From a virus (Duplodnaviria > Caudoviricetes), in the IMG/VR virus record IMGVR_UViG_2882238243_000002, positions 32,001 to 96,000 of that record: a DNA stretch of 64,000 bases; one strand, written 5' to 3'. The stretch's first letter is position 1; each line of letters opens with the position of its first letter. This document shows positions 30,344 to 60,911 of the stretch, piece after piece. Under the pieces are notes generated by a model. The model worked only from the letters and a program-made list of their open reading frames with translations, had not been told where the DNA came from and did no database searches. A program made the position numbers and the translations under genes.

Positions 30344-31234
30344 ATGAGACTATCAAAAATTAATGAAAATGATTTACTAGAAAACAAAGAATTAAGAGAG
30401 CAGATGGCAAATAAAGTCGAGGTGTTAGAAAAAGTAAAAGAATTACTTTTAATTCCAAACACAGACAAAGCAACTATACGCCAGGTTGCTGAATATTATG
30501 AGGTAGGGGAAGAAGCAATTAAATCAATCACAAAAAGAAATCGCGATGAACTAGAAGAAGATGGAACAGTCAATTATTCAGGTAATCAAACGAAAGATTT
30601 TTTAGTAGGGTTCAACCTGAACCTAACTAACGGCAAAGGCTATTTTGAAACGGAAGGAATTAAATTTGCATACAAAAGCAATACACTTTTACCACGTAGA
30701 GCAATCCTAAGAGTAGGAATGTTATTACAAGATTCCACCATAGCAAAGGAAGTGCGTACACAGCTACTTAATATAGAAGAAAAGACATCCAACGAAACAA
30801 AAACGCAAGATATTAACGAGGAGCAAGCATTGGCTCTAGCTTTAGGTATGGCACAAGTCAGCGGAGATATTACCGCTATTACAATAGCAACTGGTAATCT
30901 GATAGCCTTTAAAAATCGACACATCGAAAAACTAGAACAGTCGAACAAAGCACTTGCAAACGGCATTCTTGAATGGGAAGACAGAAGCCGGATTAATTTT
31001 GCGGTTAGAAAGATGGCAGCCTTTGCTAATATTCCAGTTGGACAGGCTTGGAATGAACTATACAAACAAATCAAGAATAAATTTCATATTGATTTACAAA
31101 GCAGGGGTATGAAGCCATGGATACAGCATATCAACGAAAAGGAATGGCAATGTGTTATAAAATCTTTTACTGCTTTATGCAAATACTATGAAATAGATTC
31201 AAATGAAATGTTTCATGATTTAAAGATTGAGTAA
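30344..31234 (+). CDS. Phage antirepressor-like DNA-binding protein
   Basis: QVAEYYEV...RRAILRVGMLLQDSTIAKEVRTQLLN, a pattern typical of phage antirepressor-type proteins. Confidence 0.65.
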   Translation: MRLSKINENDLLENKELREQMANKVEVLEKVKELLLIPNTDKATIRQVAEYYEVGEEAIKSITKRNRDELEEDGTVNYSGNQTKDFLVGFNLNLTNGKGYFETEGIKFAYKSNTLLPRRAILRVGMLLQDSTIAKEVRTQLLNIEEKTSNETKTQDINEEQALALALGMAQVSGDITAITIATGNLIAFKNRHIEKLEQSNKALANGILEWEDRSRINFAVRKMAAFANIPVGQAWNELYKQIKNKFHIDLQSRGMKPWIQHINEKEWQCVIKSFTALCKYYEIDSNEMFHDLKIE

Positions 31235-32727
31235 CAAAACAGACTTTCACTTGTCAAAGATGAGAGTCTTTTCTAATTAATAACACGAACTTAACATTGA
31301 TTAGGAGGGCAATAAGATGAAAATAAAAGTAGAAGATATAGGAAGAGGAACACTACTAGACACAAACGGAAATACCTACATTGTAGACGGTGAAGAAGTA
31401 ATGGACGATAACGGAAACGCTTATAATATTTCAGATTATGACGAATACGACAACGTGACAGAAATTGAAAAAATTGTTTAAATTTTATCTTTATAGGTAT
31501 TCATAACTTAATTATTCATTTTGTTGTGGGTATCTATAAGAAATAAAATAGAATCAAATACAAGAAACTAGGAGGTTTAAATAATGTCAAAATTTATATA
31601 TTACAAGGACAAGAACAGCGATAAAACTGCAATGCTCATTATTAGCGATACGGCAGAAATGAGAAACGAAAATAGATATATTTTACAAGTTGGTAAAACC
31701 ATCACGGATCACCCTACGCAGATGGAAGCAGAAATGGAACTGTGTAAGCATGGTATTGTTTGGACAGAACAATCTAAAAAATAAACGGAGGAATGAAACA
31801 ATGAAAAATAAAATAGTTAAGTCAATTGCCTTAATATCACTTGTAACGTTTTCATTTTTAACTGGGCTGAACATTAACAAACAGCCGATTAGTAATTCAA
31901 TTCCTATTGCTGACATAGCTGAAATGAAAATTAATGACGATGGTTATTATCAGCTTACTTTAAAAGACATTGGACATATTGATGATGATATTAACAATGT
32001 TAGATATGACGAAGTGTTGAAAATAATTAATAAGTAGGAAGGAGACGCCAAACGCTATGAAAAAATATGATTTCTCAGAATTAGGAATTAATAAATTTTA
32101 TGATACTGTATGTGATGAATCAGCCGATAAAATTCATTCAGTTATGGAAGAGGTAAACAATTCACCTTTACAGATAACAGAGGAACAGAACGCACGATTT
32201 AAAGAAATTTATGACGGTATAGCAATAATAATCACGATCGGAAATCAAACAATCTCTATTCCTAATAATGCCGACAATATAGATACTATTATAGCAGCTA
32301 TTAAAGAATGTTTTAATCAAACATTGTAACAATAAAATTCTTATTTAATTGGGTGGCATAAAGGGAAACTGATATGGCTCGCTGACGACATTTAGAGATG
32401 CTATAAACAATAATGACCCATTAAAACTATTCATGTAAGCGAAAAGGAGATAACAAAAATGAAAAAACCGGACATTGAGAAAATGGACAATATGGATCTT
32501 ATATACCTACTATGTATCAATCATACTAAAGAAACGAAAACGGCACGAAAAGAAGAAAAAATCTGTATAGAAACTTTATGGAAACGTGGCATAGTGAACA
32601 AGGAAACAATGTTAAAGAAGTTTGATATTGAGTAAAACATAAGAAAGAGGTATTTCGTAAGTTTTTAAATTGCTTGAAAAATTTCATATATTCAGTTATA
32701 ATAATTACATTATCGGAATAAGAAAGG

Positions 32728-32952
32728 GTGATCTATATATTAACTACACAACAAAAAATAAAAGTTGCTTGTGACGTTGCAGGTATGAGTTTAACAGAAC
32801 TTGGGGCAAAAATGGGAATGAGTCAAGCTAATTTTTCAAAACGTTTAAAGGTTGGGAAATTTACACAAGATGAATATATAGAAATGGCTAAATGCTTAGG
32901 CTGTAAATATATTTCATGTTTTGAATTTCCAGATGGTAACAAAGTAGAGTAG
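32728..32952 (+). CDS. XRE-family HTH regulator
   Basis: MSLTELGAKMGMSQANFSKRLK. Confidence 0.85.
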   Translation: MIYILTTQQKIKVACDVAGMSLTELGAKMGMSQANFSKRLKVGKFTQDEYIEMAKCLGCKYISCFEFPDGNKVE

Positions 32953-33028
32953 CATTATACAAATACGTATAGTGCTTTTTTATTACATTAAAATATAACT
33001 AAAAAGTAATAAATATTATTAAAAGGTG

Positions 33029-33057
33029 TTGACATACCAAAATGGTTATGATATTAT
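33029..33057 (+). promoter_or_regulatory. sigma-A promoter for ardA
   Basis: TTGACA-17 bp-TATTAT with TG extension. Confidence 0.7.
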
Positions 33058-33117
33058 AAATATAACGAAACAGTAATTAAAACAACTATTAAGTGATTAT
33101 GTAAGAAAGGTTAAAAG

Positions 33118-34083: not shown

Positions 34084-34845
34084 ATGATTGGCTTGAAAAC
34101 AGAAGTAAAAGAAATACCGTTCAACGGTAACACCTTATTAGGTGTAAAAGATGCAAGCGGGCAAGTGTGGCTGGCAGTAAAGAAAGTGTGTCTTGATATA
34201 GGTTTATCAGAAGGACAGGCACAAAGGCAAATAACAAATATTCAAGAGGAAGAGCCGTTAAAATCCAACTGTTGCAAATTTGCAATAGTTCAAACAGAAG
34301 GAAATAGAGAGATAAAGAGAAAGCAACTATTTCTAAATGAAAAGGTTGTGACTTTATGGCTTGCTAAAATTTCACTAACTCCGACTGTTAAGCGAAAAAG
34401 TCCGGAAGCATATAATAAACTTCTGAAATACCAACTAGAAGCCGCTGACATACTTCACAAAGCATTTTATGAGACAGAGGAACAGAAGACTACTTTAAAT
34501 TCTAAAATGGGATTAGAAGGGCATCTTGAAATTTTACAAGTACAGATTAACAACATGGAAAACATGTTAGAAACACAAACGGAAAAGCTTGATAGAGTAG
34601 TTGAAAATATGACACTCTCAACCAGACAGCAACAAAAATTATATAAGGCAGCAAAAGACCGAATTAATTATCTGTTGGGTGGCGCACATTCAAAGAACTA
34701 TAAAGCTAATGCCAAAAGCTACTTTATTAACCTTTGGAATAGCTTAAAATCTCGTTTTGAGTGTGGCAGATACAAGGATCTGAATCCTATTTACTATAAT
34801 GAAGCGTTTGACTTCATTTCTGAATGGGAATATACAGAAGCATAA
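34084..34845 (+). CDS. Phage antirepressor (P22 AR N-terminal-like + ORF6C-like)
   Basis: EIPFNGNTLLGV...VTLWLAKIS...YQLEAADILHKAF; C-terminal FECGRYKDL. Confidence 0.8.
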   Translation: MIGLKTEVKEIPFNGNTLLGVKDASGQVWLAVKKVCLDIGLSEGQAQRQITNIQEEEPLKSNCCKFAIVQTEGNREIKRKQLFLNEKVVTLWLAKISLTPTVKRKSPEAYNKLLKYQLEAADILHKAFYETEEQKTTLNSKMGLEGHLEILQVQINNMENMLETQTEKLDRVVENMTLSTRQQQKLYKAAKDRINYLLGGAHSKNYKANAKSYFINLWNSLKSRFECGRYKDLNPIYYNEAFDFISEWEYTEA

Positions 34846-37800
34846 CACAATGACATAATTCACGTTTTACATACAGCTTGTAGTGGTCAAACGTTACAAG
34901 CTGATTTGTTCCACTCTGTAGAGTGATGGAAATAGTCTTGTATTTTCCTATTCAAAGAAAGTAGTTGTTAATGGAGAATATAAAAACCACTTGAAAAGTA
35001 AGTTTTATTTGAAGAATGGAGGAATTAACACAATGGATAATTACACATTAAAAAATTATAAAATTACTTTTGAAAGAAGTAATAAAAGTATCGGTTATGA
35101 TTTTTTTAAAGCAACTTCAGAAGCGGAAGCAAGGTATAATTTTAAAGAATGTTATAGGCATGACGTGTATAAAATTATATCAGTAGAACAAGTAAGGTAG
35201 TCTAACAGCTACCTTTTTATATTTAGAATGGAGGGTTAGACATATGGCAGCCTGTAAAACATGGAATTATCCAGAAACAGAAACTACAAAACAGTTTGAA
35301 AAGTTGTTTTCTAAAATAGATAACATTATTATTAATAAATGGTACCAGATTAATAATAATCCTACTTTTATTTATGAGAATAACAAATTTTATTATCACA
35401 TGGCCATAACAAAAAGGAATAGTATAGGGTTTTATATTGATGATTATGTTCTAAGTCGTAAAGGAGAATTGGTATACATTACAACGTATGGATATTTTAA
35501 GACCAAAGAAGATCTAATGAAATTCTTGAATAGTAAAACAATGTAGCGGAGGTATAAACATATGGAGAATATAGCATTAAACAACGGTCAAACCGTCTTA
35601 ATCGGCTCAAATAGAGACATTGTAGAAGTAGTTGAAGAACATTGCAGCTATGAACTTGCAAGCCTTATATCGTCAAGAATAGTGGATATAGACGCAGAAA
35701 GATTATATGCAGAAGAACGAGCACAAACTGATGCAGACAGTTATCTTTCAGATCTGGAAAGTAAAGAATGTTGTTTGCGTGACGTATTGGAAATTGCAGA
35801 AGGATTGACGGAATATATTGAAGATGCAAAGAGGATTAACAAGGACACTATTTATCAAAAGATAAATGAACTTATAAAACTAATCGGAAATGAATTATAA
35901 AATGGAGGAATCAAAAATGGAAATCAAAAACTTATCACAATTAAAGAAAGCAATTGCAGCCGGTAACATATTTATTATCAAAGATCACAGAGTATCGGAG
36001 TTTATAGGGAAAAAGCGTAAAGGTAATGTAATTCAGACCAATGGAATATATTCCATTGTACCAGACGAACCAGAAAACAGAATTAATCAAGCCAATGGAA
36101 GAAAGGGTTCCTGGTTAGAATATGGTAAAGCTTCAGAATGGAAGTTTGATAATGGAATATGTACACTTTATAACGGAGAACATAAACCGGAAAATCTGGT
36201 AATGTCCTTCGTTTTTGAATGATTGGAGGAAATAAGATGACGAATATTATTAAAGCAGGAACATATAAGGTGGAAATTGAATTTACACTAGAAGAAGATA
36301 CAGCAGAAAGCGTATTAGATAATATCTTTGAAGATGCGATGTATAATAACTTCAATGATATTTCTTCAAGTGATGTTGGAGAATATGTAAAAGTGAATGA
36401 AGATAATAAAAATACAATTATGTAATGAAAGACGAATTTCAAGCCTGTTTGGGCAGAAAGTAGGGGTTAATATATGAAAGAATTTAGAGTTGTAGACGAA
36501 GATATGAATGTTTACGGAGAATTTGATGGAATAGTGGCAGCTTGTAGAGAGTCAAATAAAGTTAGTGGTACTTCTGTATATGTGATGGATTTAAAAACTA
36601 AAACAATTAAAGAAATTTTATCAGATAAAACAGTTGAGTATTTTGCTAATTATGAACTAAGCCATGTCAGATAAAAGGAAAATTTCATATAAGGATTGGA
36701 GGAAATTAAAATGAAAATTAAAAACATTGATTGGGATGCAGACAGTGAAGATGTTTTATCCCTTCCGACAGAAGTAAATGTCCCAGAATGCATACCAGAA
36801 GAAGATATAGCAGATTACCTTTCAGACACTTATGAATTTTGCGTCAAGAGTTTTGAAATGAAGCATTAATAAACAAAAATGACTTAAACGGTCGGAAAGT
36901 AGGCAGGCAATGAAAAGATTAGGGATGTTTAGTGGAAAAATATACAGTGAAGAAGATAAAACTATGAATGAATGTAGTTTATGCATTACAGAAAAACAGG
37001 CAAATGATAACGAATATATCAGTAAAAAGAAAGAAGAAAATCTTTCTAAGTGTGGCGGTTGTTTCGGTTGCCCAATGTCTAATATGATGATTTAATATTC
37101 AATCAAAAATAGATTTCAGTAAATGGTAGGAAGATAAACATAACATTAAATCGTTCTACTTATGGAAAATCAGAAACTAAACAGAGAATAACAGTAGGAA
37201 GGTAAAAGCCTTCCTTTTATGTTGCAAAAATGGAGGAATTTAAAATGTTAGCACGAAAGAAGGTTATCTATCAACCATTTTCAGTATGCACCACGTTAGA
37301 AGATGTAAGACGGCAGCGCAGAATAACGAAAGCATATTATATTAAACAGAAGTTATTAGGTTTATTGATGCTTGTAATAGGCATAATTTCGCTCTTTACA
37401 GTACATGACGGTACATTTTTTATGATGTCTATATTGATTGGTTTGTACTTGGTATTTACGCAACAAAAGGTAACTATATTCAGAAAGGGGTAACAGCTAT
37501 GAGAATAACAGGAATAATGATCAATGGAATAGAAGTAATTCCAGAACATGGACACTATTTGTTACAAAAGGATAATACGAAAATGAGATGCGATTTCGGA
37601 GAATTAAATGAGTGTATACCAGAATTTGAAGAATATTTAGAGGAAGCAAAACAAAAATTGCAAACAGCATAAATTAACAGGAGGAGGATTTATCATGAGA
37701 GAAATAGATTTAATTCGTAACTACTATGCTCTTTTAATTAGCATTTGTAAACGGAAAAGCGCAAAAGAATCTTTAATTGATATGAGGATATCGCCAGAAA

Positions 37801-40763
37801 CAAAATAATACATATTGCCGGCTATTCAGTGAAAAATAGTCGCTTACCGTCAAAAACAAACGGATGTACCGGAAGGGAATTATATTTCTTTCGCTAACCT
37901 CGTGTAATTGGAGGTAGAAAAATAATAAAAACGCGGCTGGTAATTTTCAAAGGTTATCAGCCGATTTTAGAGAACGGTGTACTTCTCAAAGTAACAGGAA
38001 AACGCATTTCAATATAAGATTGGAGGAAATAATAATATGTTGGTTTATATAGTAAATGAACGCACAAACGGAAAAAACGGTTCCTTATTTGGTGGAATAT
38101 TTAGCACTAAAGAAAAGGCTAAGCAAGTAGCAGATAGAGAAAATAGCAGAAAAAATAAACCTAATGATGTATGGTTTGATTATGTTGGAATTGAAGTTGA
38201 TGATGATTTTAGAGCCAAATATTAACTTGAAATTCACATTTCAAGACTAATTAGAAAGGAAAAGGATAGGTGAAATATATGAATTTTTATCTAATACAAC
38301 GTGGGAGTTTTAAAGAATTAAATAATGATTATGAAGGGCTTACAGGTAGAAATGGGCTTATTGATTTAGATTATATGGGTTCATCAGAGTTTGAGTGGGG
38401 AGCAATTCCTAAAGCATATCGTAGAATTATGGGAAATAGAGAAAATTATATTTTTTATTATTGCCATGATATAAAAGACTACAGAGGAAAAATCCTTGTA
38501 ATTTTTTGCAAGAAAGAAAATGCAGAAGCAATTGAAGAAGAATTAAAAAGATATATTAAAGAACATTACCATCTCAAAGAGTTTTGTACTCTTCATGCAC
38601 ATTTAGAAGGGTCGAAAAAGAATAGGATGAATGAATATCAAATTGGAAAAGATTTTTTTTGGTGTATTGATATAGGAGAAGATATATCTGATTGGATGGC
38701 GTGGTTTGGAATGGATAAATTGACAGTATTTAAAAATATGATTGATAAAGATTATAACGAATGGTGGATGAAGAAGGCAGAGTCAGAAAGAATAGATGAA
38801 TATAACAAAGCATTGAATTGGTAACATATATAATGAAATGTACCTTTCTTATGGTATAGATTGGAGAAAAACGATATGAAACGTATGGGATTCTATACTG
38901 GAAAAATATATGATGATTCTGTTAATCCAGCAGACATTAAAGAATGTTGTCAGTATATCAATTACAAAGAACCTATTCTTGATGATGAAGAGCTGATTAT
39001 CAGAAAACGCAAGTTGTTACATGAAAGATGTATTGAATGTAACAGTTGTGAAGAATCGAAAAAAGGTGAATGATGTCTTTCAATAGAGGAGGAATAACGA
39101 GATGAAGTGGAAATTATTTTGTACTATTACAATGGGAACTTATCATATAGAGGCAGATAGTTTATATTCAGCAAAAAAGCAATTAGCAGCACAACTTGGC
39201 GTACCTGTTAGTTGCATAGATGATTACAGATAAAATGCACGTTTCTTATGGTAGGTATTGTAATTATAGAAAAAAGTTAAAACACATTGAAAATACTTGT
39301 TTGATATAGAGAGGAGAAAACTATGAAAGTTAGGGAATATATAATAAGATTAAGAAATGATAATCCAGAGGCGTACATGGTTGCCTATAAATCTCAAGAA
39401 GGAGACGGAGACAGTGCACATTTAAGCATCATATCTTTCCTGACGAAGTATGGTGATAGAAATATGGGTGACGAATATCATGATGATTTTTGTCATGCCG
39501 ATGGAACAAGAAATCTTAATCAATTCATAAAGAGAATATATACGGTATAAACAGAATGCTGATTTTAAATTGAAAGGTAAGAATATGAGAGAAGATTTCA
39601 AAGTGGTTGAAAAGAATGGAAAACAATATAGAAAAAATCTTAATACAACAGGAATGTGCGTTTATTATTCTGATTTGAGGTGTGTATGCTGTAATCCAGA
39701 TTGTAGCTATAACTGTAGTATTGATGATGAAATAGAAGAACAGTTAGAAAATGATTTTCTGAAAAGATGAAATCGGAATTTAGTCTGGATAAATATTATC
39801 AGTAGAACTAAATTAAACTTTAAAGAGGTGAAAAATGGTAAATAATGAATACCCAAAAACAAGCAGGACAAAGTTAAGAGGAAAACCTCTTGATGATGAT
39901 TGCAAAAAAGCAAATACAACTACACATGAAATGGGTATGAAAGATAACAGGGTATTTTGCCGTGGATTATATGCGTGTGGTGGAATGTCGGAAGATATTG
40001 ATAAAAAATGCCTTTTATGTGGAGCGTATGTATTTAACGATTTAAGTTAGGAGAAAATATGGAAAATATTAAAATGATTGTAGAATCACTATTGGGAGTA
40101 GCGGAGGCTACTTATGAAGTATGCACAGATGAAATCGAAAAGGCAAGAATGGATGGATAAGTAAGAGCGTACAGAGAAGTTCTTTCTCACCTAAATTAGC
40201 CTTTCGAAAAGGAGAATATATGACAGATAATGATTTAAATGATTTGGCAATACAAACGATGAGTAGTTTAATTGAATATTACGGTAATTCAGACAGCAGA
40301 AGCATTGATTGTAAAAGGGCAAAAAATTTATTAATAAAAAACTCTTTGAAAATTTACAAGGGTAATTATACATGTCCCTCCTGCAGCACATTTAATTCTG
40401 TATGGGAAAGCAGAGAACATACAGTTAAAAACGATGTTGTGTATTGTTGGCATTGCGGACAAAAAGTTCAATTAAAATAAATTAGTCTTTAATGAGGTGT
40501 TGAACATTGAAAACTTAATATTGATAGTTAGTGGTATTGTGGTACAATATAGGTATTGATGAGTAGTAAATTGGAACTTTGGAGGAGATAATGAAATGAA
40601 AGTAATGATTAAAATGATTGCTGCCGTAATTATATTTCTAGTTTATTATATTGTGTTTTGTGCAATAGAAGGTATAGATATGGGTGACCCATGGAAAAAA
40701 TTAATGAAATGGGCAAAAAGTTAATTGGTATAGTCCTTGTAAATTTAATAGTCTTGAGATATC

Positions 40764-40800
40764 AACTACTAACTACAAATATTAAGTTAGTAGTTTTTTT
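40764..40800 (+). terminator. Rho-independent terminator
   Basis: AACTACTAACT...AGTTAGTAGTT followed by a T run. Confidence 0.75.
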
Positions 40801-40988
40801 ACGCGAAAAATAGCTAGTTAAACTAAGCATTAGTGGGTAAGAAAAGATGAAACATAGGTTTCAACCGGCACTGGGTTGTGTCGCTGACCATTAAAAACTA
40901 ATGGTAGATATTTCAAGATTATAGTATAATAACAATAACAGAATATAGTGGATAAAGACCTACATGGTAGGCAGAAAGAGGTATAGGA

Positions 40989-41201
40989 ATGGTAGGATTG
41001 ATAATTATAGGTGCAATAGCTTGGATAGCATGGCAAGTACTTAAAGACGTATCTACAACACCGTATGATCCGGGTTCGTATGGTGGTTCACATGAAGCGC
41101 AGACGAAATTCAGACAGGATATCTCAAAAGTCAGTTTTGGTGAGATGTCACAAAGGGAACTTGACAGAAATACCCGTAACGGAAAATATAGAGACAAATA
41201 A
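40989..41201 (+). CDS. Small membrane-anchored protein
   Basis: N-terminal hydrophobic MVGLIIIGAIAWIAW. Confidence 0.6.
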   Translation: MVGLIIIGAIAWIAWQVLKDVSTTPYDPGSYGGSHEAQTKFRQDISKVSFGEMSQRELDRNTRNGKYRDK

Positions 41202-41214
41202 GGAGGAGTTTATT

Positions 41215-41490
41215 ATGGGAGTAGCAGAATTTTTTATAGGATTATTTTTGATTTTAGGAACTTATATTTTTATTAAAATGCCAAGATGGAAATCGGACAA
41301 TAGGGTATCACCGCCAGGATATACGACAGACTATCATAAAATGAACGTTGACAGAAATAATGGTATGAATCAGCGTGATATTGATAATAAAAATATTAAT
41401 GGTGGTTATGATGTGAAAGCAGATAAAAACGGTTGTCCGGACAGAAGTGAAAGCGGAACAAATTGGATGTATGGCGGAAAATCTGAATAA
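41215..41490 (+). CDS. Small membrane-anchored protein
   Basis: AGGAGG RBS; MGVAEFFIGLFLILGTYIFI. Confidence 0.6.
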   Translation: MGVAEFFIGLFLILGTYIFIKMPRWKSDNRVSPPGYTTDYHKMNVDRNNGMNQRDIDNKNINGGYDVKADKNGCPDRSESGTNWMYGGKSE

Positions 41491-43941: not shown

Positions 43942-44193
43942 TCAGTCCTTTTTTGTACGGTGAAATGTTGGATCGTCAGTACGTCCGACTAAATAATCTA
44001 TAGACGTTTGAAAATAATCAGCTAATTTTATTACCATGTCTAAACTTGGCTTTTTCTGTTCATTTTCAAAATTACTGATTGTTGCTCTCGTAGCCCCTAA
44101 ATCATTAGCTAATTGCTCCATCGTTAATCCTTTAGATGTACGAAGTTCTTTTAATCTAGTGGAAAATGATGGAAGAAAAAAGAAAAAAAACAT
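43942..44193 (-). CDS. XRE-family repressor
   Basis: RLKELRTSKGLTMEQLANDLG...KPSLDMVIKLADYF...DYLVGR. Confidence 0.9.
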   Translation of the reverse strand: MFFFFFLPSFSTRLKELRTSKGLTMEQLANDLGATRATISNFENEQKKPSLDMVIKLADYFQTSIDYLVGRTDDPTFHRTKKD

Positions 44194-44204
44194 TTTATCA
44201 CCTC

Positions 44205-44250
44205 TTGACAAAAGTATTCAAATAGAATACAATGTATTCAGATGGAATAC
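44205..44250. promoter_or_regulatory. Divergent switch: promoter with two palindromic operators
   Basis: TTGACA(44205)-17-TACAAT; GTATTC-N5-GAATAC at 44214 and 44234. Confidence 0.75.
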
Positions 44251-44283
44251 AAACGAGATATAAAAACTGGAAAGGAGAGCAAA

Positions 44284-44472
44284 ATGAGCCAGTTAAAGAA
44301 ACTTCGTTTGCAACATCATTGGACTCAACAATATGTAGCAGATGTTATTGGTATTACAAAGGCAGCTTATTCTAATATAGAAAATGGAAATAGAAATCCA
44401 TCATTAAAAATTGCTTTACATCTGCAAAATATATTTGGTCTACAAATAGAAAAAATATTGGAAAAAGAATAG
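44284..44472 (+). CDS. Cro-like XRE regulator
   Basis: LKKLRLQHHWTQQYVADVIGITKAAYSNIENGNRNPSL. Confidence 0.88.
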   Translation: MSQLKKLRLQHHWTQQYVADVIGITKAAYSNIENGNRNPSLKIALHLQNIFGLQIEKILEKE

Positions 44473-48281: not shown

Positions 48282-48342
48282 AAAAGATGTGAGAATTAGT
48301 GGTAAGATACAATGAAAGGATAGTTTCGTGGGAGGTGATGTT

Positions 48343-48975: not shown

Positions 48976-49551
48976 ATGAGCGTGGAAATGCAAATTGCTT
49001 TATTGGGTATCATAGGCACCCTTGTAGGTACAGTATTAGGTTGGTTTTTAAATAATCTGTCACAGCGAGGAAAACTTAATATATATGTTTCATCTTGGAA
49101 AGATAAATTCGAGTACAATCATATTGGAACAATGGTTCCTAGTTCAAGCATCGAACAGACTGAAAGTTATTCATACAGATTAGCACTCGATTTATATAAC
49201 GATAGTGGTGAAACAAAGATAATGAGAAATGTTGAAATTGTATTTGCTAAAAACAAAGAGGTATTGTATTGCAGTGTTCCCAAAGATGAAGCAACTGGGC
49301 GAACAAGCCATCCGATGGCATATTATGATGATGTATTACCTATAAACATCCCACCAAAGACTGTTTTACATATAGAACTCTTCAAAGGGGTTTGGAAAAG
49401 TAATACCTCACTTGATTTTATTTGGAAAACTACTTCGGTATTTTTGAGATATGTAAACGAGAATAATAAAAAAGTAAGTGTTATGATTAATAAAGTAAAC
49501 TACAAGGATTATTTTATTCATCATAAGACAGATGAGCAAGATAATGAATAA
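48976..49551 (+). CDS. Membrane-anchored hypothetical protein
   Basis: N-terminal TM IALLGIIGTLVGTVLGWFL. Confidence 0.65.
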   Translation: MSVEMQIALLGIIGTLVGTVLGWFLNNLSQRGKLNIYVSSWKDKFEYNHIGTMVPSSSIEQTESYSYRLALDLYNDSGETKIMRNVEIVFAKNKEVLYCSVPKDEATGRTSHPMAYYDDVLPINIPPKTVLHIELFKGVWKSNTSLDFIWKTTSVFLRYVNENNKKVSVMINKVNYKDYFIHHKTDEQDNE

Positions 49552-49848
49552 AAGTTCAGTTTCAATACGGGAGGGATAAATATGGATTGGAATAAAGTAA
49601 ATCTAAGAAGTAAAGATAAAAATTTACCACAAGCGGACATACCTGTAATATGGGCAACTAATGAAGAAACTCATGATGAAAAGATATTCCATAAATTTAT
49701 TGGATGGCTAAGTAAGGATTGTAAATATGTGGAGTCTGGATGGAAAAGATATAGAGTAACTAGTAAATTCTGGTGGCAGGAATTGCCAGATGATCCGGAA
49801 ATTTAATATATAATGAATGTGAAATTTCGTAGCATTGGGAGAAAGTAG

Positions 49849-50658: not shown

Positions 50659-50687
50659 TTGAAAAAGAACAACTGTTCGATTATAAT
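50659..50687 (+). promoter_or_regulatory. LexA-repressed promoter
   Basis: TTGAAA-17-TATAAT with GAAC-AACT-GTTC (50667-50678) in the spacer. Confidence 0.8.
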
Positions 50688-50718
50688 AACCTTATCCAAT
50701 AATTTAGGAGGTGTCATT

Positions 50719-51984
50719 TTGGATAGGGTTATTTTTCATATAGATGTAAATTCCGCGTTTTTATCATGGGAAGCAGCATATCGCATTCATCATCTGGGAG
50801 GTAGATTGGATTTGCGTACAATTCCATCTGCTATCGGTGGAGATGTAAGTATGCGCCATGGTATTATTCTTGCTAAGAGCATACCAGCAAAGCCGTATGG
50901 AATTCAGACTGGAATGACGATAATGGAGGCAAAACAAAAATGCCCTAATTTATATTTGGCTCCTCCGAATTACTCTTTGTATCAGAAATGCTCGAAGGCA
51001 TTTTTGACTATTTTACGTGAATATACACAAGATGTTGAGGTATACAGTATTGATGAAGCATTTCTCGATATGACAACTACAATGCACCTATATGGAGATC
51101 CTATAGATGTAGCTAATCAAATTAAGAATCGAATACGAGACGAATTAGGATTTACTGTGAATATTGGAATTTCATCTAATAAACTTCTGGCAAAGATGGC
51201 AGGTGATTTCAAGAAGCCAGATTTAGTTCATACACTTTTCCCGGAAGAAATTGAGAAGAAAATGTGGGTATTGCCAGTATCAGAACTATTTTTCTGTGGT
51301 CGAGCTACCACAAAGAAATTATTGAACTTTGGTATTAATACAATAGGAGATTTAGCGCATACTGATATAGAGTTCTTAAAAAGAAATTTAAAAAAGCAAG
51401 GTGAAATAATGTGGAACTTTGCGAATGGACTTGATTTTTCTGCTGTAATATCAGAAACGCCAAAACAAAAGGGGTATGGAAATTCTACCACCACTCAGTT
51501 TGATGTAAAAGATGCTGAGACAGCTCAAAAGGTGTTATTAGCATTGTGTGAAACTGTAGCTGCTAGATTGCGAAAAGATGATTTCCAAGCACAAGTAATA
51601 TCTGTTGGCGTTAAGAGTTCCGATTTAAGTTATGCAAGTCATCAGATGATTATGAAAAGTCCAACGAATATTACAAATGAATTATATTATTATTCTTGCA
51701 AGCTATTTCTTGAATTATGGGATAAACAAACTCCTATACGACATCTTGCGGTTCACACCAGTTCTTTAACATCTGAGTTTGGTTCCCGACAGCTTAACTT
51801 ATTCGACGTAACTGATTATATAAGGTTAGAAACGTTAGATAAGACAGTAGATATTATCAGAACAAGATATGGTAATGATGCGGTTAAACGAGCAGTATTT
51901 ATTCAAACGCCAATTGACCATATGGAGGGTGGAGTGTCTAGAGAAAAGCGTACAGTAGATTATTCAAAGATTAACGTTGTCTGA
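50719..51984 (+). CDS. dinB: Y-family DNA polymerase (DinB/UvrX-like)
   Basis: FHIDVNSAF, YSIDEAF, NKLLAKMA, QLNLF clamp-binding motif. Confidence 0.92.
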   Translation: MDRVIFHIDVNSAFLSWEAAYRIHHLGGRLDLRTIPSAIGGDVSMRHGIILAKSIPAKPYGIQTGMTIMEAKQKCPNLYLAPPNYSLYQKCSKAFLTILREYTQDVEVYSIDEAFLDMTTTMHLYGDPIDVANQIKNRIRDELGFTVNIGISSNKLLAKMAGDFKKPDLVHTLFPEEIEKKMWVLPVSELFFCGRATTKKLLNFGINTIGDLAHTDIEFLKRNLKKQGEIMWNFANGLDFSAVISETPKQKGYGNSTTTQFDVKDAETAQKVLLALCETVAARLRKDDFQAQVISVGVKSSDLSYASHQMIMKSPTNITNELYYYSCKLFLELWDKQTPIRHLAVHTSSLTSEFGSRQLNLFDVTDYIRLETLDKTVDIIRTRYGNDAVKRAVFIQTPIDHMEGGVSREKRTVDYSKINVV

Positions 51985-52923: not shown

Positions 52924-52954
52924 TAATGTTTGATGAAGAAAAAGACGATAGAAA

Positions 52955-53218
52955 TTATTCACTATCGTCTTTTTTATTTTGTTTATTTAACATAAAATAT
53001 GCCATTAAGCGATTTAATCGAGGATCATCTGAAACCATAATTTCATTTGGTGTGCATTCGAGTTCGAGACAGATTGCTTCGAGTATTTCCAGCTTTATGC
53101 TAGTTGATTCGCCATTATATATTTTATCTACGGTCTTGTAAGTAACGTCAATACGTTTTGCCAACTCATACCTGGTTATTCCTTTATTATCTAACTTATC
53201 TTTAATATTTAAACGCAT
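52955..53218 (-). CDS. Cro/C1-type HTH regulator
   Basis: GITRYELAKRIDV...IKLEILEAICLELECTPNEI. Confidence 0.85.
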   Translation of the reverse strand: MRLNIKDKLDNKGITRYELAKRIDVTYKTVDKIYNGESTSIKLEILEAICLELECTPNEIMVSDDPRLNRLMAYFMLNKQNKKDDSE

Positions 53219-54114: not shown

Positions 54115-54436
54115 AGTAAACAAGTCACGCAAAAAGAAAGAAGGCTAATCTTTTCATCGGTGTTGGCGCACCTCCAAGATTGAACCTTCTTTCAAATTAC
54201 ACATATATAACATAATACACGTCAGAATTGACGCAAATTATGAAACATAGCAGAAAAGCTATGTCTAAGCACATTTTACATACTTTCACTTGATTCGTCA
54301 AGTAAATTCTTGTGTTAAGGCAGTTCTGCTATAAAATCCCAATTACAAAAAGAGAATAAGTAAGTGAGAGCTAAAGTAATAGAAATTACTTTGGTGTGAT
54401 ATTTTGTTGTCAAAAATCAAAAAAGGAGAAAAATAC

Positions 54437-55045
54437 ATGGCAGATTATGTTATTACAGATGGTTCACGATGGATTATGAAAGACCGAAAAGGCAAATATG
54501 TTCCTACGTCATGTGAGACTTTTGCTGACCTTTACACCCAGAGACAGGCAAATGCGTTGTACAATAATTCTCTTCCTAAAGCACTGAAAACAGTATTTCG
54601 TGTAGAGAAGGTGGACAAACCACCGTCTCTAGTAAAGCAAGCAACTATCAAGGATACTACATACAATACTGAAAAGGTTATGGTTGCTGATAATATCCAG
54701 AAGTGGTTGGACAAGGTATCTGACCTAAATGGGTTGGCTAATGATGCATTACATAGGAAAGAGGAATTATTAAAGCAATTAAGTGAAATAGACAAAGAGT
54801 TGTCCGATATTTCGCACTACATAGAGTTCGTAAATCTTAATGCAGCACAGGGTTACATGACATATAAGATGATAAAGGATAGACGCATAAAACGTAGAAG
54901 TGTCAAAAATGAATTGGAAGTATTGGCTATTATACTTGGTAAAAAGATTTCGGAAACAGCGACTGATGAAATTCAAAAGTGCGTGGCTGGAATGGATGTC
55001 AGACAATATGAGCCTAGAATTATGAAAGAGCTGTTTGATTTATGA
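54437..55045 (+). CDS. Coiled-coil phage protein
   Basis: DKELSDISHYIE...RRSVKNE...YEPR. Confidence 0.6.
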   Translation: MADYVITDGSRWIMKDRKGKYVPTSCETFADLYTQRQANALYNNSLPKALKTVFRVEKVDKPPSLVKQATIKDTTYNTEKVMVADNIQKWLDKVSDLNGLANDALHRKEELLKQLSEIDKELSDISHYIEFVNLNAAQGYMTYKMIKDRRIKRRSVKNELEVLAIILGKKISETATDEIQKCVAGMDVRQYEPRIMKELFDL

Positions 55046-55737: not shown

Positions 55738-55753
55738 TTTGGGGGACATAGTC

Positions 55754-57208
55754 ATGGCGAAGAAAATTAGAAAACAAACATTAGCATTAAAATCGTATCT
55801 TGAAAAGATGAAAGAAGAAAATCAAGAGATTAGAAGTGACCAGGATGTACAGAGATTATCTGGTCAATGGGATAACAGTATGATTAATGAATTGGTTGCT
55901 ACAGTACTTACCGATGACTATATTCCACCAATTATATTAGGAGAAGAAGAAAGAGAAGATGATACAACACAGCTTTGGGTTATTGATGGACTACAACGAA
56001 GCTCGACATTGGATTTGTACAGATATGGCAACTGGACAATTACATCAGCTATTGAAGATAGTATTATAGAGTATCAAAAGAACAAAATAGAAGATGGAAA
56101 AGTTTGTAGAGACGAAGAGGGTAATTTAATTAAGGATACTGTCGAATTTGATATTAAAGGTAAAACGTTCGATGAATTGCCAAATGAACTAAAGAAAAAA
56201 TTTGATGACTATCAAATAGAAATGGCAGTACATCAAAATTGCACAATGGAACAAATATCAAAACTAATAAGGCGCTATAATAATCATCGCGGAATGAACA
56301 CGGTACAAAAAGCCTTTACATACTTAAACAACTTTGCACGAAAAATTCGTGCAATTATAGATATGAGATTTTTTAAAGATTGCATGAAGGATTTGGGTAA
56401 AGAAAAAATAAAGGGTGGCTATGAACGAATTATTATGGAGTCAGTGATGGTAATGTTTCATTTGGACAAATGGAAAAAGACTCCTAAAGATATTGGAAAG
56501 TATTTAAACAATAATGCAACAGATGAAGAGTTTGATGTTTTAAAAGAAGTGATTAGTCGCTTAGAGCCTGTAGTAGATGATAATTTTAAAGAAATATTTA
56601 ATATGAAAGATTCATTTATTTGGTTTGCATTTTTTCATAGGTTTTTAAAATTAGGTTTAGATGATAGTAGATTTAGAGATTTTCTTAAAGAATTTACAAG
56701 TGAATTACATAACAAAACATTTGAAGAATATGATAACAGATCCTTCGATACAGTTGACGGAGGGAAGGGTACTAAAGACAAGAGGGTCATCATTCAAAAA
56801 TTGGACATGCTTGAAAAATTAATGAATGATTTTTTACATATTAAGAATGTGGAATTTAGCAAAAATGAGCTGGAAATAGAGAATAACGAAGTGAGTAAAG
56901 AGCAATTTATTGCGGAAAATGTTGGCATGGATATTGAAGATATAAAAGCTGATATGGAACTTTATGAGCAATCACTTGACGATTTACTTGATAAAGCCGT
57001 AAAGGATGGTTCGAAATTGCTTAATAAAGCAAACAGAGTATCTTTGCTGGCAATGATTTCGTATTCGTATAAAGAAGACAAGGATTTAGATGAGTGGATG
57101 CTTGAATACGCAAAAAATAATAATACATATTTTATTGACCAAAAGAAGAATTACATACATATGCTTAAAGACTTAGAGAATTTTATTAAGAAGGGAGTAG
57201 CTGCTTAA
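55754..57208 (+). CDS. DUF262/ParB-like domain protein
   Basis: DVQR...W, IPPIIL, VIDGLQR, RYNN motifs. Confidence 0.7.
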   Translation: MAKKIRKQTLALKSYLEKMKEENQEIRSDQDVQRLSGQWDNSMINELVATVLTDDYIPPIILGEEEREDDTTQLWVIDGLQRSSTLDLYRYGNWTITSAIEDSIIEYQKNKIEDGKVCRDEEGNLIKDTVEFDIKGKTFDELPNELKKKFDDYQIEMAVHQNCTMEQISKLIRRYNNHRGMNTVQKAFTYLNNFARKIRAIIDMRFFKDCMKDLGKEKIKGGYERIIMESVMVMFHLDKWKKTPKDIGKYLNNNATDEEFDVLKEVISRLEPVVDDNFKEIFNMKDSFIWFAFFHRFLKLGLDDSRFRDFLKEFTSELHNKTFEEYDNRSFDTVDGGKGTKDKRVIIQKLDMLEKLMNDFLHIKNVEFSKNELEIENNEVSKEQFIAENVGMDIEDIKADMELYEQSLDDLLDKAVKDGSKLLNKANRVSLLAMISYSYKEDKDLDEWMLEYAKNNNTYFIDQKKNYIHMLKDLENFIKKGVAA

Positions 57209-58700: not shown

Positions 58701-58782
58701 CTTCCAACGTTCAGTGTGTTAACTCCAATGGCAACGTGAACTACAACGATTGTAACTGGAATGACAAAGGCGTGCGTCCGTT
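58701..58782 (+). ncRNA. DGR template repeat (TR)
   Basis: AAC-rich invariant copy of the VR between avd and RT; GC-rich GGCGTGCGTCCG near the 3' end. Confidence 0.93.
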
Positions 58783-58901
58783 CTGGGTCGGAAGACGAAA
58801 GAAAGTAGGAGAAACACCGAAATTAGAGTCCCGATATCAAAAGAATAGACAACCTTTCCTGTCTGATAAAAGGCAGGATAAATACAAAGGATTGAAATAT
58901 T

Positions 58902-59969
58902 ATGACAGAAGATAAAACAGATTTTGAGGTCGTTACGGATTTTGGTAATTTATATCAAGCTTATAAAAAATCAAAATCAGGTAAGGGATTTTCAAAGAGC
59001 AGTCAACAATTCCAAGTGGCGACTCTTGATGGAATTCATCAAATAAAAAGAAGATTAGAAACCAAAACATACGAAGTATCTAAATATAATGAATTTACAA
59101 TATATGAACCAAAAGAGAGAATTATTAAAGCAGGTTCATTTGTAGATAAAATAGTTCAGCACAGCTTATGCGATAACGTATTAATTCCTAAATTGGAATC
59201 TGAATTTATTCAAACTAATTATGCTGGACAAATTGGAAAGGGAACGTTATACGGACTCGATTGTTTAAAGGCACAAATGTATTTGGCATATCAGAAATAT
59301 GGATATAATTGTTGGATAGTTAAAGCCGATATAAGTAAATTCTTCTATAATATAAATCGCGATATTTTAATAGATATAGTTGCTTATTTTATAGAAGATA
59401 AAGATGTATTTTGGTTGTGTAAAAAGTTTATAAATAGCACAGAAGGATTGGGGCTTCCACTTGGAAATCAAGTAAGTCAAGTATTTGCATTATTATATCT
59501 ATCCGGATTAGATCATTTTGTAACCGGCGAATTAGGTGTGAAATATTATGGAAGGTATATGGACGACTTTTATTTAATTGTAGAAACAAAAGAATGTGCT
59601 AAGTGGTGTTTAAGTAATATTTATGAATTTGTTCATTCCCTTGGATTAGAATTGAATAACAAAACTCAAATTATACCTTTCAAAAATGGAATTAAGTTTT
59701 GTGGTTTTCATACATATGTTACGGAAGATGGCAGGGTTATTCGTAAATTAAAGAATGAGAACAAAAGAGCTGCAAAGAAAAAATTTAGAAAGATGGCTAA
59801 CTTAGTGAATAAAGGTAAGTTAAGCAAGGATAAATTTAATGAGTCTTATTGTGCATGGAAAAATCATATTTCTCATGGAAATTGTGTTAAGTTGGGATAT
59901 GAGATGGATAGGGATATAGAAGAATTATTTAATAAGTCTTGTGAAACGAATATTTCAATAGTAGATTAG
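58902..59969 (+). CDS. DGR reverse transcriptase
   Basis: YEPKER, GKGT, KADISKFF, GLPLGNQVSQ (DGR SQ motif), RYMDDF. Confidence 0.95.
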   Translation: MTEDKTDFEVVTDFGNLYQAYKKSKSGKGFSKSSQQFQVATLDGIHQIKRRLETKTYEVSKYNEFTIYEPKERIIKAGSFVDKIVQHSLCDNVLIPKLESEFIQTNYAGQIGKGTLYGLDCLKAQMYLAYQKYGYNCWIVKADISKFFYNINRDILIDIVAYFIEDKDVFWLCKKFINSTEGLGLPLGNQVSQVFALLYLSGLDHFVTGELGVKYYGRYMDDFYLIVETKECAKWCLSNIYEFVHSLGLELNNKTQIIPFKNGIKFCGFHTYVTEDGRVIRKLKNENKRAAKKKFRKMANLVNKGKLSKDKFNESYCAWKNHISHGNCVKLGYEMDRDIEELFNKSCETNISIVD

Positions 59970-60039
59970 GAAGAGAAATATGAAGCTACTTAAATATTGA
60001 TATGAGAAATAAATAGAGTAAAAATTTTTACTCTATTTA

Positions 60040-60723
60040 TTAAGAACCATTGATTATTTTTCTTACTGCGTAAGGAAGTAAATAATGTTCACTATGATCA
60101 ATGAACTTTTGTCCATATTTATGTCTTATGTTTGTAACGTAGGTGTCGAAACCTGTATAACTGTAATCATAATTTAGTTTATTTACTATATCACAATATT
60201 TACTATTATTATACTGCCTGAAAGTCCAACAAGTATTAGGTCTAATGCTATAAATGGAACAAATGTTATCATTTAAAAATAAACATTGTTTGTTCAATTT
60301 TGAATATTCTAAGTTTATGTTGTAACTTTCGTCGTTTGTTATATGCAATATTTTGAATGGTACAAGTGACTCGTTCACAGCATTACATATATTGTTGGCA
60401 GTGTTGCCAAGATACCTTTTAACTCTTTTATTTAAAAAATTTATATGGTACTTTAACATTTCAAATTCAATAGGATCAATATAAATAGCTTGTGAACAAC
60501 ACTTAGAGCAGCCAATAGTGCATACGCATTTTAAGCCACAATTATGTTCGACAAGATTAATCATGTCAGTTGCACGTATTATTTCTTGTGAATTCCAATC
60601 AGTCAAATCTTTCAAATCTTTAAAATTTGGAGAAACGCCTAGATTAAAAGCTATTTTATTTTGATTATCTTTAATGTAATTTAGAATTTCTTTTGTTTTT
60701 AAATTCCAAATAAATTTACTCAT
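60040..60723 (-). CDS. YkgJ-family cysteine-cluster protein
   Basis: CTIGCSKCC, CLFL...CSIYSIRPNTC. Confidence 0.8.
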   Translation of the reverse strand: MSKFIWNLKTKEILNYIKDNQNKIAFNLGVSPNFKDLKDLTDWNSQEIIRATDMINLVEHNCGLKCVCTIGCSKCCSQAIYIDPIEFEMLKYHINFLNKRVKRYLGNTANNICNAVNESLVPFKILHITNDESYNINLEYSKLNKQCLFLNDNICSIYSIRPNTCWTFRQYNNSKYCDIVNKLNYDYSYTGFDTYVTNIRHKYGQKFIDHSEHYLLPYAVRKIINGS

Positions 60724-60911
60724 ATATACAACACTCCTTTGGGGAATTATAGCAAAAATAAAATAAGAAGTAAATAGAAAGATACTAGTAAAGTAGATAT
60801 ATAAAAAATATAAATGGAGACGAAATCAGGATTTTAACGGAAAAAAGTATCAACATATAGTGGCAAATACAATATAAACACAACATATAGTATGTAAAAA
60901 GGAGAGAAAAT

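Follow-up and report, generated by a model that had tools for sequence, protein, structure and literature searches.

A palindrome of two inverted 5-bp arms around a 6-nt centre punctuates the accessory gene array of an SPbeta-like prophage and lies at preferred mosaic boundaries

The window analyzed here is a stretch of 64,000 nucleotides from a Caudoviricetes record (IMG/VR record IMGVR_UViG_2882238243_000002, positions 32,001 to 96,000), and the element in question is a 16-bp site, TGAAA-N6-TTTCA, in which two inverted 5-bp arms flank a 6-nt centre. The original prediction placed this palindrome at about 30 gene junctions between 31234 and 60836 and took it for the boundary of integron-like cassettes. 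We found that, across a family of large temperate phages related to SPbeta, sites of this design are interspersed in the arrays of accessory genes, and that the mosaic boundaries of related phages prefer the junctions that bear them.

The window corresponds to G000:C8:251855-315854 within a 4.26-Mb genome of 40% GC, where it is enclosed by a low-GC island (32% GC, 151 kb) at about C8:215000-366000. Among the open reading frames (ORFs) of the island, protein matches to SPbeta were obtained for the terminase YonF (48-49% identity) and for YonG, YomI, YonJ, YorJ, YorK, YorL, YoqD, YoqV, YoqW, YolE, and YonR. The gene layout is that of SPbeta, with minus-strand late genes (window 1-28 kb) followed by a plus-strand array of small genes from 28 kb, and a canonical integrase gene (C8:362375-363628) lies at the right end of the island. 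Based on the protein matches, the shared layout, and the right-end integrase, the island is identified by sequence as a distant SPbeta-like prophage of about 150 kb.

Exact copies of TGAAA-N6-TTTCA numbered seven in the window versus 0.51 expected (sd 0.72), and copies with at most one mismatch numbered 32 versus 12.1 (sd 3.3); neither count was reached in any of 100 dinucleotide-preserving shuffles. The excess was confined to a spacing of 6, as each of the other spacings from 0 to 14 gave 0-3 exact copies window-wide. For positions 28001-64000, spacing 6 accounted for seven exact and 25 one-mismatch copies, compared with 0-2 and 3-10 for the other spacings, and no peak at spacing 6 was observed in the late-gene half (positions 1-28000; 7 versus 2-10). 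Sites with two mismatches were near background window-wide (155 versus 118-157). The 26 sites listed in the original prediction comprised five exact copies, 11 with one mismatch (together 16 of 26), nine with two, and one with three (40191), and the exact sites 40848 and 53030 were absent from that list.

The junctions were surveyed using a crude gene call that yielded 66 plus-strand junctions, with spacings 3-9 as decoys. An exact site was present at 6 of the 66 junctions and a site with at most one mismatch at 15 (0-4 for spacings 3-9), while sites with up to two mismatches were found at 29 (5-17 for other spacings). Judging from the mismatch tally and the junction census, approximately 15-20 junction sites are credible, not about 30; the motif itself stood, and the fixed spacing around a variable core, the enrichment over shuffles, and the junction excess that had been proposed as its test were all found. 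The motif is present in the interval first assigned to it but extends beyond it, since the genome holds 41 exact copies, 16 of them distributed over the island. For sites with at most one mismatch, compared with the mean of other spacings, the counts were 35 versus 8.8 in the early accessory region, 9 versus 2.7 in the downstream accessory region, 17 versus 10.5 among the late genes (a slight excess), and 0 versus 1.2 in the replication module (no excess).

Most of the window sites with at most one mismatch follow the order stop codon, site, and ribosome-binding site (RBS), as had been claimed. They usually start at the stop codon or within 10 nt of it, the TGA or TAA of the arm often being the stop itself, and 13-35 nt separate their end from the following start codon. 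The claimed placement failed for the site at 59942, which falls inside a gene, within its final 28 nt. The membership of 53030 in the set is uncertain, and its enclosing ORFs are of uncertain status. The sites were as follows.

31466-31481, TGAAA-AAATTG-TTTAA, one mismatch; the right arm includes the stop of ORF 31317-31481
34992-35007, TGAAA-AGTAAG-TTTTA, one mismatch; between an anti-repressor gene (end 34845) and the next gene
36426-36441, TGAAA-GACGAA-TTTCA, exact; abuts the stop of ORF 36219-36425
36672-36687, TAAAA-GGAAAA-TTTCA, one mismatch; TAA is the stop of the upstream ORF, next start at +23 nt
37103-37118, TCAAA-AATAGA-TTTCA, one mismatch; 8 nt past the stop of ORF 36910-37095
38228-38243, TGAAA-TTCACA-TTTCA, exact; stop 2 nt upstream, next start 26 nt downstream
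38834-38849, TGAAA-TGTACC-TTTCT, one mismatch; stop 9 nt upstream, next start 26 nt downstream
39067-39082, TGAAT-GATGTC-TTTCA, one mismatch; overlaps the stop of ORF 38861-39073, next start at +19 nt
40848-40863, TGAAA-CATAGG-TTTCA, exact; non-coding, between an ORF end at 40813 and an ORF start at 40989
42704-42719, TAAAA-GGATTA-TTTCA, one mismatch; TAA is the stop of ORF 42224-42706, next start at +25 nt
42892-42907, TGAAA-TGATTG-TTTGA, one mismatch; TGA is the stop of ORF 42745-42894
43691-43706, TGAAA-TCTAAG-ATTCA, one mismatch; core shared with four related viral contigs
43913-43928, TGAAA-TCATCG-TTTCA, exact; stop 3 nt upstream, followed by a hairpin and a T-run
47038-47053, AGAAA-GATTGA-TTTCA, one mismatch; 22 nt upstream of the start at 47076
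47649-47664, TGAAA-TGCTGT-TTTCA, exact; TGA is the stop of ORF 47496-47651, next start at +26 nt
48313-48328, TGAAA-GGATAG-TTTCG, one mismatch; stop 31 nt upstream, abuts the next RBS/start
49549-49564, TAAAA-GTTCAG-TTTCA, one mismatch; TAA is the stop of ORF 48976-49551, next start at +17 nt
53030-53045, TGAAA-CCATAA-TTTCA, exact; inside the small overlapping ORFs 52926-53141 (plus) and 52955-53218 (minus)
55023-55038, TGAAA-GAGCTG-TTTGA, one mismatch; within the final 23 nt of ORF 54404-55045
59942-59957, TGAAA-CGAATA-TTTCA, exact; final 28 nt of the reverse-transcriptase ORF 58902-59969
62950-62965, TGAAA-ATTAAA-TTTTA, one mismatch; overlaps the stop of ORF 60912-62966

A terminator-like hairpin (34874-34903) precedes site 34992, and a separate hairpin with a T-run directly downstream was found only at site 43913. 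The information in the sites is contained in the two 5-mers, flanked by a less pronounced A on the left and T on the right (roughly A-W-GAAA...TTTC-W-T), and the 6-nt spacer is flat; the conserved extent is 16-18 bp, and conservation fades beyond 6-7 bp per arm. For 118 unique sites, T and A at positions 1 and 16 were independent (two-by-two table [[34,15],[26,16]], p=0.51), and the frequent variants AGAAA...TTTCA and TAAAA...TTTCA disrupt the pairing of the arms. The predicted RNA hairpins were marginal, with a mean of -1.5 kcal/mol compared with -0.5 kcal/mol (sd 1.0) for random 20-mers. A hairpin is unlikely because the half-sites do not covary, and the independent arms, the pair-breaking variants, and the marginal hairpins together point to duplex DNA recognized by two protein subunits. 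The hairpin reading of the sites was rejected on the absent covariation and the weak predicted folds, and a promoter or terminator reading on the counts and positions of promoter-like sequences, which were not enriched in the window (98 versus 102.2 in shuffles) and of which the six strongest plus-strand hits all lay away from the sites. Independent inverted 5-bp arms around an unconserved 6-bp centre agree with the tyrosine-recombinase core geometry that the original prediction had invoked, as in XerH-difH.

The same design was recovered in relatives by an unbiased scan of each genome for any 5-mer followed by a spacer and its reverse-complement 5-mer. The top result was TGAAA-N6 in the window's own prophage (16 copies versus a mean of 1.67 at other spacings), TAAAA-N6-TTTTA in SPbeta (34 exact copies versus a mean of 1.75, range 0-4), and TAAAA-N6-TTTTA again in the prophage G031, whose terminase is 55% identical (56 copies versus a mean of 2.0). 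One 50-kb stretch of SPbeta contained 16 copies of TAAAA-N6-TTTTA versus 1.03 in shuffles, and no excess of the TGAAA form was found in SPbeta. Twenty-nine of the 34 exact SPbeta sites are intergenic, with non-coding DNA making up just 14% of the genome, and 11 of 44 intergenic sites (at most one mismatch) supply, with their TAA, the stop codon of the preceding gene. The G031 site is directly joined to the Shine-Dalgarno sequence (TAAAA-N5-A-TTTTA-AGAGGT), whose G positions are conserved at 77-85% (52 sites; G031:C55:1-76000, L029-L032). Seventeen viral contigs encode the in-array recombinase of the window (63-73% identity), and GAAA-N6-TTTC was present in 16 of them, the pooled counts being 121 at N6 versus 1-30 at other spacings; only L051, of 842 bases, was without it. 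The arm sequence is lineage-specific, with TGAAA/TTTCA in the window and the viral contigs and TAAAA/TTTTA in SPbeta and G031.

The genome collection covers at least 400 genera of the host family. A search of its contigs with the in-array recombinase gave one distant match in a metagenome-assembled genome (L017, left out of comparisons), and when the phage polymerase was searched class-wide, most matches were DnaE-type genes of hosts. No phage matched window 36000-44000 by megablast, and the same-genus DNA search (G000 and three other genomes) gave short non-coding matches only. In a further genome, G253, the arrangement GTTTT-N10-AAAAC occurred in five copies versus 0.17 at other spacings. 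No mention of the motif was found in library searches or in passages of an SPbeta review, the YonO paper, the MrpR paper, and a comparative preprint, while the 1999 SPbeta genome paper could mention it.

The spacers were compared for pairs of sites from different phages in which both 120-nt flanks were without detectable similarity, and the expected numbers of identical spacers were derived from position-specific base frequencies. In the TGAAA clade, identical 6-nt spacers were observed in 62 of 6386 pairs (about 4.0 expected), representing 13 distinct shared spacers that were each found in 2-4 unrelated contexts. In the SPbeta clade, 25 of 2818 pairs were identical (8 distinct; about 2.5 expected). 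In 39 of these 62 pairs, the distances of the two sites from the shared recombinase gene agree to within 1.5 kb, so that the shared spacers behave as positional alleles. For example, the core of site 43691, GAAATCTAAG.TTCA, is identical in five phages (the window and four viral contigs) with flanks that are unalignable on both sides, and in the contigs it lies 1.9-2.6 kb upstream of the recombinase gene, a distance comparable to that in the window. No spacer recurred within loci (0 of 720 and 0 of 805 pairs) or among exact sites within whole genomes (0 of 561, 0 of 1540, and 0 of 120). Shared spacers are unpredicted by a pure operator model; they are predicted by a recombination site that requires matching centres and also by a short-homology linker.

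Mosaic boundaries were mapped in two comparisons, namely the SPbeta clade (SPbeta 77-102 kb versus phi3T, SPbetaL8, L4, and L2) and the TGAAA clade (15 viral-contig loci, all against all). In this mapping, the ends of BLAST high-scoring segment pairs (HSPs) are fuzzy and the gene calls for unannotated loci are crude. In the SPbeta clade, 86 of 252 internal HSP ends, which are not independent, lay within 8 nt of a site. Breakpoints were found at 11 of 12 site-bearing reference junctions compared with 8 of 33 site-free junctions (p=7e-5), and at 5 of 15 site-free junctions of at least 40 nt. In the TGAAA clade, the number of breakpoints per site was 0.40 for N6 and 0.00-0.22 for decoy spacings, and 62 of 663 clustered breakpoints were at sites. 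When gene starts were pooled over loci that are not independent, a breakpoint was present at 26 of 31 starts with a site and 30 of 145 without in the SPbeta clade, and at 41 of 64 and 237 of 564, respectively, in the TGAAA clade.

Nucleotide-level mapping of unique pairs (at least 90% identity) showed a concentration of block ends at site positions 14-18 (8 of 16 and 9 of 24 in the two clades) and of block starts at positions -1 to 3 (7 of 14 and 8 of 18). Thus, in two independent clades, mosaic boundaries prefer site-bearing junctions and peak at the site edges. Within the window, similarity to the relatives L044, L049, L054, and L055 begins at 43930, 2 nt past site 43913, and similarity to relatives stops at 55047 (site 55023) and at 62966-62968 (site 62950). 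In SPbeta, position 116431 is the last base of TAAAA-TATTCC-TTTTA (L004:16431), and the alignments of Goe12, SPbetaL2, and Goe13 end there. Both of the clean indels that have a site at each end show the insertion structure "arm, new spacer-arm-genes-arm, old spacer" that is predicted for within-site exchange, and the yoqH-yoqI difference between SPbeta and phi3T also has the structure predicted for such an insertion. Separately, eight SPbetaL phage records start at the equivalent of SPbeta 115716 (L004:15716; start of yorX).

The window encodes the following candidate binders of the sites.

45543-46613, plus strand: Xer-like tyrosine recombinase P0001, inside the array, with a likely true start at 45618 as in relatives
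12867-13820, minus strand: second Xer-like tyrosine recombinase, late region, with the R..K..HxxR..H..Y pattern intact
43942-44472: divergent pair of Xre/RstR-type helix-turn-helix (HTH) genes (43942-44211 minus, 44242-44472 plus), candidate dimeric binders if the sites are operators

P0001 belongs to the Phage_integrase family (PF00589, 1.1e-22), its best solved relatives are XerH, XerA, and XerD, and the XerC, XerS, and XerA models match it below their cut-offs. Its residues R209, K235, H306, R309, W332, and Y342 were invariant in 11 of 11 distinct homologues, and it is a candidate enzyme or binder for the sites. The product of 12867-13820, related to SPbeta YomM (E 1e-8) and matched by the Xer-family models (XerC, XerD, XerA, and XerS) below equivalog cut-offs, is an alternative candidate. 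SPbeta YopP and YomM are both Xer-like, and their genes are orphans without assigned function. As regards the phage recombinase proposed earlier, an Xer-like gene with intact catalytic residues does lie inside the array, but no site adjoins it in the window or the 16 relatives. A hairpin with a T-run was found downstream of the recombinase gene in 16 of 16 relatives. In the viral-contig relatives (L040-L056), a conserved ORF with paired-cysteine (zinc-ribbon-like) motifs lies just upstream of the recombinase gene and is translationally coupled to it, and the window is without that ORF. Arm-protein co-evolution was set aside as a line of evidence, the in-array recombinases of the three lineages being alignable at the family level only. 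No small DNA-binding protein common to all three lineages was detected by tblastn.

The array and its surroundings include the following other genes.

50659-51984: Y-family DNA polymerase (IMS domains), accessory-array cargo
55739-57208: GmrSD_N-domain protein, accessory-array cargo
58902-59969: reverse transcriptase (RVT_1, phrog_1423), accessory-array cargo
34084-34845 and 44667-45458: paralogous anti-repressor genes (P22_AR_N and ORF6C)
6653-6727, 11914-12000, 12449-12525, and 17970-18043, minus strand: tRNA genes for Pro, Ser, Lys, and Pro, respectively, among the late genes

The polymerase, the GmrSD_N protein, and the reverse transcriptase are defence or SOS-type cargo. The anti-repressor duplication (34102-34966 versus 44724-45584) shows 76% DNA identity over about 860 bp. 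SPbeta-like relatives encode genes annotated Gad1. One of the late-region tRNA genes adjoins the second Xer-like recombinase gene, and the Rfam search of the window gave three tRNAs and no other family. The mostly non-coding stretch at about 40050-40850, at the end of which lies the exact site 40848, gave short matches (74-94% identity, 30-150 nt) at many places in two same-genus genomes, mainly G003, and contains neither a tRNA nor an Rfam family. An HU/IHF-like gene (18257-18544, minus) adjoins a 943-aa ORF (18531-21362, minus), an arrangement like that of yonN and yonO in SPbeta, where YonO serves as the single-chain RNA polymerase. A tblastn search with YonO at E 1e-3 gave matches in G031 and G253 and none in the window's prophage.

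We tentatively favor, with a confidence that approaches but does not reach even, the explanation that the sites are heterospecific minimal Xer-type core sites serving as crossover points for module exchange. The two inverted 5-bp arms (weakly 6-7 bp) would be read independently around a site-specific 6-bp centre by a phage-encoded Xer-like recombinase, which would be P0001 (45618-46613) or the product of the YomM-like gene 12867-13820 here and YopP or YomM in SPbeta. Strand exchange would occur at the arm/centre boundaries between sites sharing a central region. Co-infecting phages or resident prophages that share a site allele at the same array position would thereby swap blocks of small genes, while the array of each genome should be stable because its centres are distinct. 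The heterospecific lox sites used in cassette exchange may serve as a working analogy. Crossover at such sites would account for the common arms, the Xer geometry, the centres that are distinct within and shared between genomes, the boundaries at site edges, the restriction to plastic regions, and the orphan, intact Xer-like genes. We infer the binding, the catalysis, the acting protein, and the spacer dependence from sequence. A precedent in the same phage family, described in passages of PMC10516654, is MrpR, a protein with a recombinase fold that binds the repeated element SPBRE. We hold with more reserve the wider proposal that genome-wide heterospecific Xer-type sites and a phage Xer-like recombinase (yopP or yomM; P0001 here) make up a natural cassette-exchange system in SPbeta-like phages.

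Several observations weigh against crossover by an Xer-like enzyme. Most boundaries of the TGAAA clade lie elsewhere, since for 224 of its 254 unique breakpoints the nearest site with at most one mismatch is over 40 nt away; for the SPbeta clade, this distance from a site is exceeded by 34 of 76. The expectation that breakpoints of related phages fall at sites was correct as a preference that peaks at the site edges, but not for the majority of the TGAAA-clade events. Of 24 clean indels, just two had sites at both ends, as did two of the 182 short blocks shared between phages, so the claim that each gene or block is a site-bounded cassette was not supported. The junction statistics count related loci more than once, and the loci are not independent. 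The lack of repeated centres within a genome is also the chance expectation, and three direct matches were found in 9131 pairs versus about seven expected. No GAAA-N6-TTTC core was present beside the recombinase gene (about 90 nt after or 130-200 nt before it) in the window and 16 relatives. By the author's reading of the alignments, YopP and YomM have K at the expected second catalytic arginine. No orthology was detectable among the in-array recombinases of the three lineages (P0001 versus the G031 in-array gene, E 0.002 over 43 residues; YopP versus the same gene, E 0.73), yet the arms of SPbeta and G031 are identical. The fixed distance from site to Shine-Dalgarno sequence in G031 (TTTTA-AGAGGT) fits an expression element equally. 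No 5-N6-5 excess was found in G253 (G253:C1:40001-141618, L023-L028; 48% GC) or in G448, G649, and G392, for which the 14-60 kb fetched may miss the accessory regions. Finally, the conserved arms are 5-7 bp, compared with the 10-11 bp covered by XerH.

An unlikely but serious alternative is that the sites are operators or roadblocks for a dimeric regulator (an Xre-type HTH protein, e.g., 43942-44472, or a recombinase-fold repressor) that times or silences the small-gene operons. The boundaries would then coincide with the sites only as a consequence of each site standing where a separately expressed unit begins. A palindrome with independent half-sites and a free spacer that is restricted to early accessory operons would suit such a regulator, HTH genes related to SPbeta YonR are present in the prophage, the G031 site keeps its fixed distance from the Shine-Dalgarno sequence, and the placement between stop and RBS resembles that of cluster A stoperators. 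MrpR, presented in passages of PMC10516654 as a recombinase-fold repressor on a repeated palindrome in this same family, is a precedent here as well; however, the ten MrpR peaks from chromatin affinity purification sequencing (ChAP-seq) of SPbeta are all at SPBRE in those passages, which argues against MrpR as the site binder but not against another protein. Operators leave without account the identical spacers at the same array position between unrelated flanks, in excess in both clades, as well as the block ends and starts that peak at the site edges within a junction of about 45 nt. The sites are not at promoter-like sequences, and the conserved early replication module has none.

It is improbable, although less so than the readings discussed below, that the sites are short conserved linkers for homologous recombination that tolerates short or imperfect homology, as proposed for the PeSLs of T4 and for lambdoid boundary sequences. 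No dedicated recombinase would be needed, and the arms would be conserved for some other function. Boundaries at the sites and 16-mers common to different phages would be explained in this manner, and T4-type PeSLs set a precedent, according to PMC2839356, for regulatory motifs that mediate shuffling. For laboratory hybrids of phi3Ts and SPbeta, 15 of the 16 recombination junctions are reported to lie in homologous DNA, the non-homologous one being placed "following yosA". On the other hand, 16 bp is very short for homologous recombination, linkers give no reason for common arms with distinct spacers or for the exact 5-6-5 Xer-like geometry, and they leave without a role an in-array recombinase that is conserved and, by its residues, catalytically intact.

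We consider it very improbable that the sites act in RNA, as a small hairpin or protein-binding element before the RBS that controls or insulates translation or marks mRNA processing. All of the sites are in transcribed intercistronic positions, and the end of the site is followed by a start codon after 13-35 nt in most SPbeta cases and directly by the Shine-Dalgarno sequence in G031. Such a role is contradicted by the independence of the arms, the common variants that break pairs, and the marginal hairpins; furthermore, uncoupled junctions of the replication module are without sites, the late genes are near background, and the sharing of spacers across unrelated contexts is left unexplained. 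A by-product of base composition (a stop codon and an A-rich then T-rich spacer in an AT-rich phage) has a negligible probability and was refuted by the spacing scans, because, although the left arm begins with TGA or TAA and is often the stop itself, the excess occurs only at spacing 6 in the window, SPbeta, and G031, and the observed counts were reached by no dinucleotide-preserving shuffle.

Why the mosaic boundaries of phages sit at gene junctions is a long-standing question. It is commonly answered either by random illegitimate recombination followed by selection or by conserved linker sequences. In the present family of temperate phages of 130-160 kb, a defined, countable site of a protein-recognition type lies at a large proportion of the boundaries within the most plastic region, and the same design in SPbeta of Bacillus subtilis makes it directly testable by standard genetics and biochemistry. 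If exchange at matching sites does operate, accessory blocks including anti-defence genes would be swapped between co-infecting phages and resident prophages while each genome is kept stable. Because the site-bearing arrays hold such genes, a dedicated exchange mechanism would bear on the spread of defence and counter-defence genes. If the sites are instead regulatory, they would represent a second, independent invention of stoperator-like control.

Integrons consist of an IntI integrase, an attI site, and attC cassettes, the attC sites being long, imperfect inverted repeats with single-stranded folds, and the attI site and cassette promoter adjoin the integrase gene. The present array resembles them in its small, mostly promoterless genes parted by recombination-type inverted repeats after stop codons and in a tyrosine recombinase in or beside the array. 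It differs in lacking an IntI-type integrase, folded covarying attC sites, an attI-like site by the recombinase gene, and regularly bounded cassettes. For the integron integrase model TIGR02249, P0001 had no hit at E<=0.001, and the 12867-13820 protein scored 30.5 bits versus a cut-off of 265. By its genes and sites, the array is not an integron, and the term "integron-like" was dropped.

Stoperators are orientation-dependent and lie in short intergenic gaps near stop codons. According to PMC9283540 and PMC6550527, those of cluster A mycobacteriophages are asymmetric sites, present in tens of copies per genome, at which a monomeric immunity repressor binds and halts elongation. The likeness lies in the tens of copies of one short site per phage genome, whereas the sites described here are palindromes restricted to accessory regions and have candidate binders only. 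SPBRE, similarly, is a repeated palindrome of the same phage family bound by a recombinase-fold protein, MrpR, whose recombinase function is described as lost in passages of PMC10516654. Its sequence was approximately ACAAATACAAAWAATATGTATA in regions extracted from AF020713 (L002-L004) upstream of yorE, aimR, yonT, yonP, yonX, yorZ, yosX, yopV, and yopM, and its inverted arms, ATACA-N7-TGTAT (6 copies versus 0.25 at other spacings), have a recombinase-site-like anatomy. SPBRE differs in having about ten copies, in promoter regions, of a 15-bp sequence other than the present sites. The identity of the sites with SPBRE was ruled out by the sequence and spacing of the repeat found ahead of the ten MrpR target genes, and TAAAA-N6-TTTTA was not among the ten MrpR ChAP-seq peaks given in those passages.

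The closest likeness in anatomy is to XerH-difH. In passages of PMC5241119 and PMC3325230, difH consists of two arms and a 6-bp central region between them; base-specific reading is limited to the inner 5 bp of each arm, the centre has hardly any contacts, and the printed core, TGAAAA-N6-TTTTCA, is close to TGAAA-N6-TTTCA. The present sites share the inverted arms and 6-bp centre, with an enrichment peak only at spacing 6 in three lineages, and the specificity pattern, with about 5 bp of specific inner arm and a flat spacer. Genes of the Xer family with intact R, K, HxxR, W/H, and Y (P0001 and 12867-13820) are present as candidates for the cognate enzyme. According to the same passages, XerH covers arms of 10-11 bp but contacts the outer arm bases through the backbone only, so that the fading outer-arm conservation speaks neither for nor against an occupancy of 10-11 bp. 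The dif site differs in being a single chromosomal site for dimer resolution, whereas tens of sites per genome are found here at gene junctions, each with its own centre and with a phage-encoded recombinase that scores below the Xer equivalog cut-offs.

The pdif sites of Acinetobacter plasmids, which according to PMC6449649 and PMC13141974 flank discrete gene modules shuffled among relatives, are likewise multiple Xer-type sites in the accessory region of a mobile replicon. They are 28 bp long, are served by host XerC/XerD, and bound modules on both sides, whereas the present sites are phage palindromes of 16-18 bp with phage-encoded candidate recombinases and two-sided bounding in 2 of 24 indels. 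The T4-type promoter early stem-loop elements (PeSLs) combine, according to PMC2839356 and PMC4122927, a sigma-70 promoter and a terminator stem-loop between small non-essential genes and recombine by homology. They resemble the present sites as short repeated motifs in the plastic regions of large phages at which the differences between close relatives end, and differ in that the present sites have recombinase-site geometry and neither a promoter-like sequence nor a stable hairpin. By analogy, the system would work most like modules bounded by Xer sites, with an evolutionary effect like that of the T4 PeSLs.

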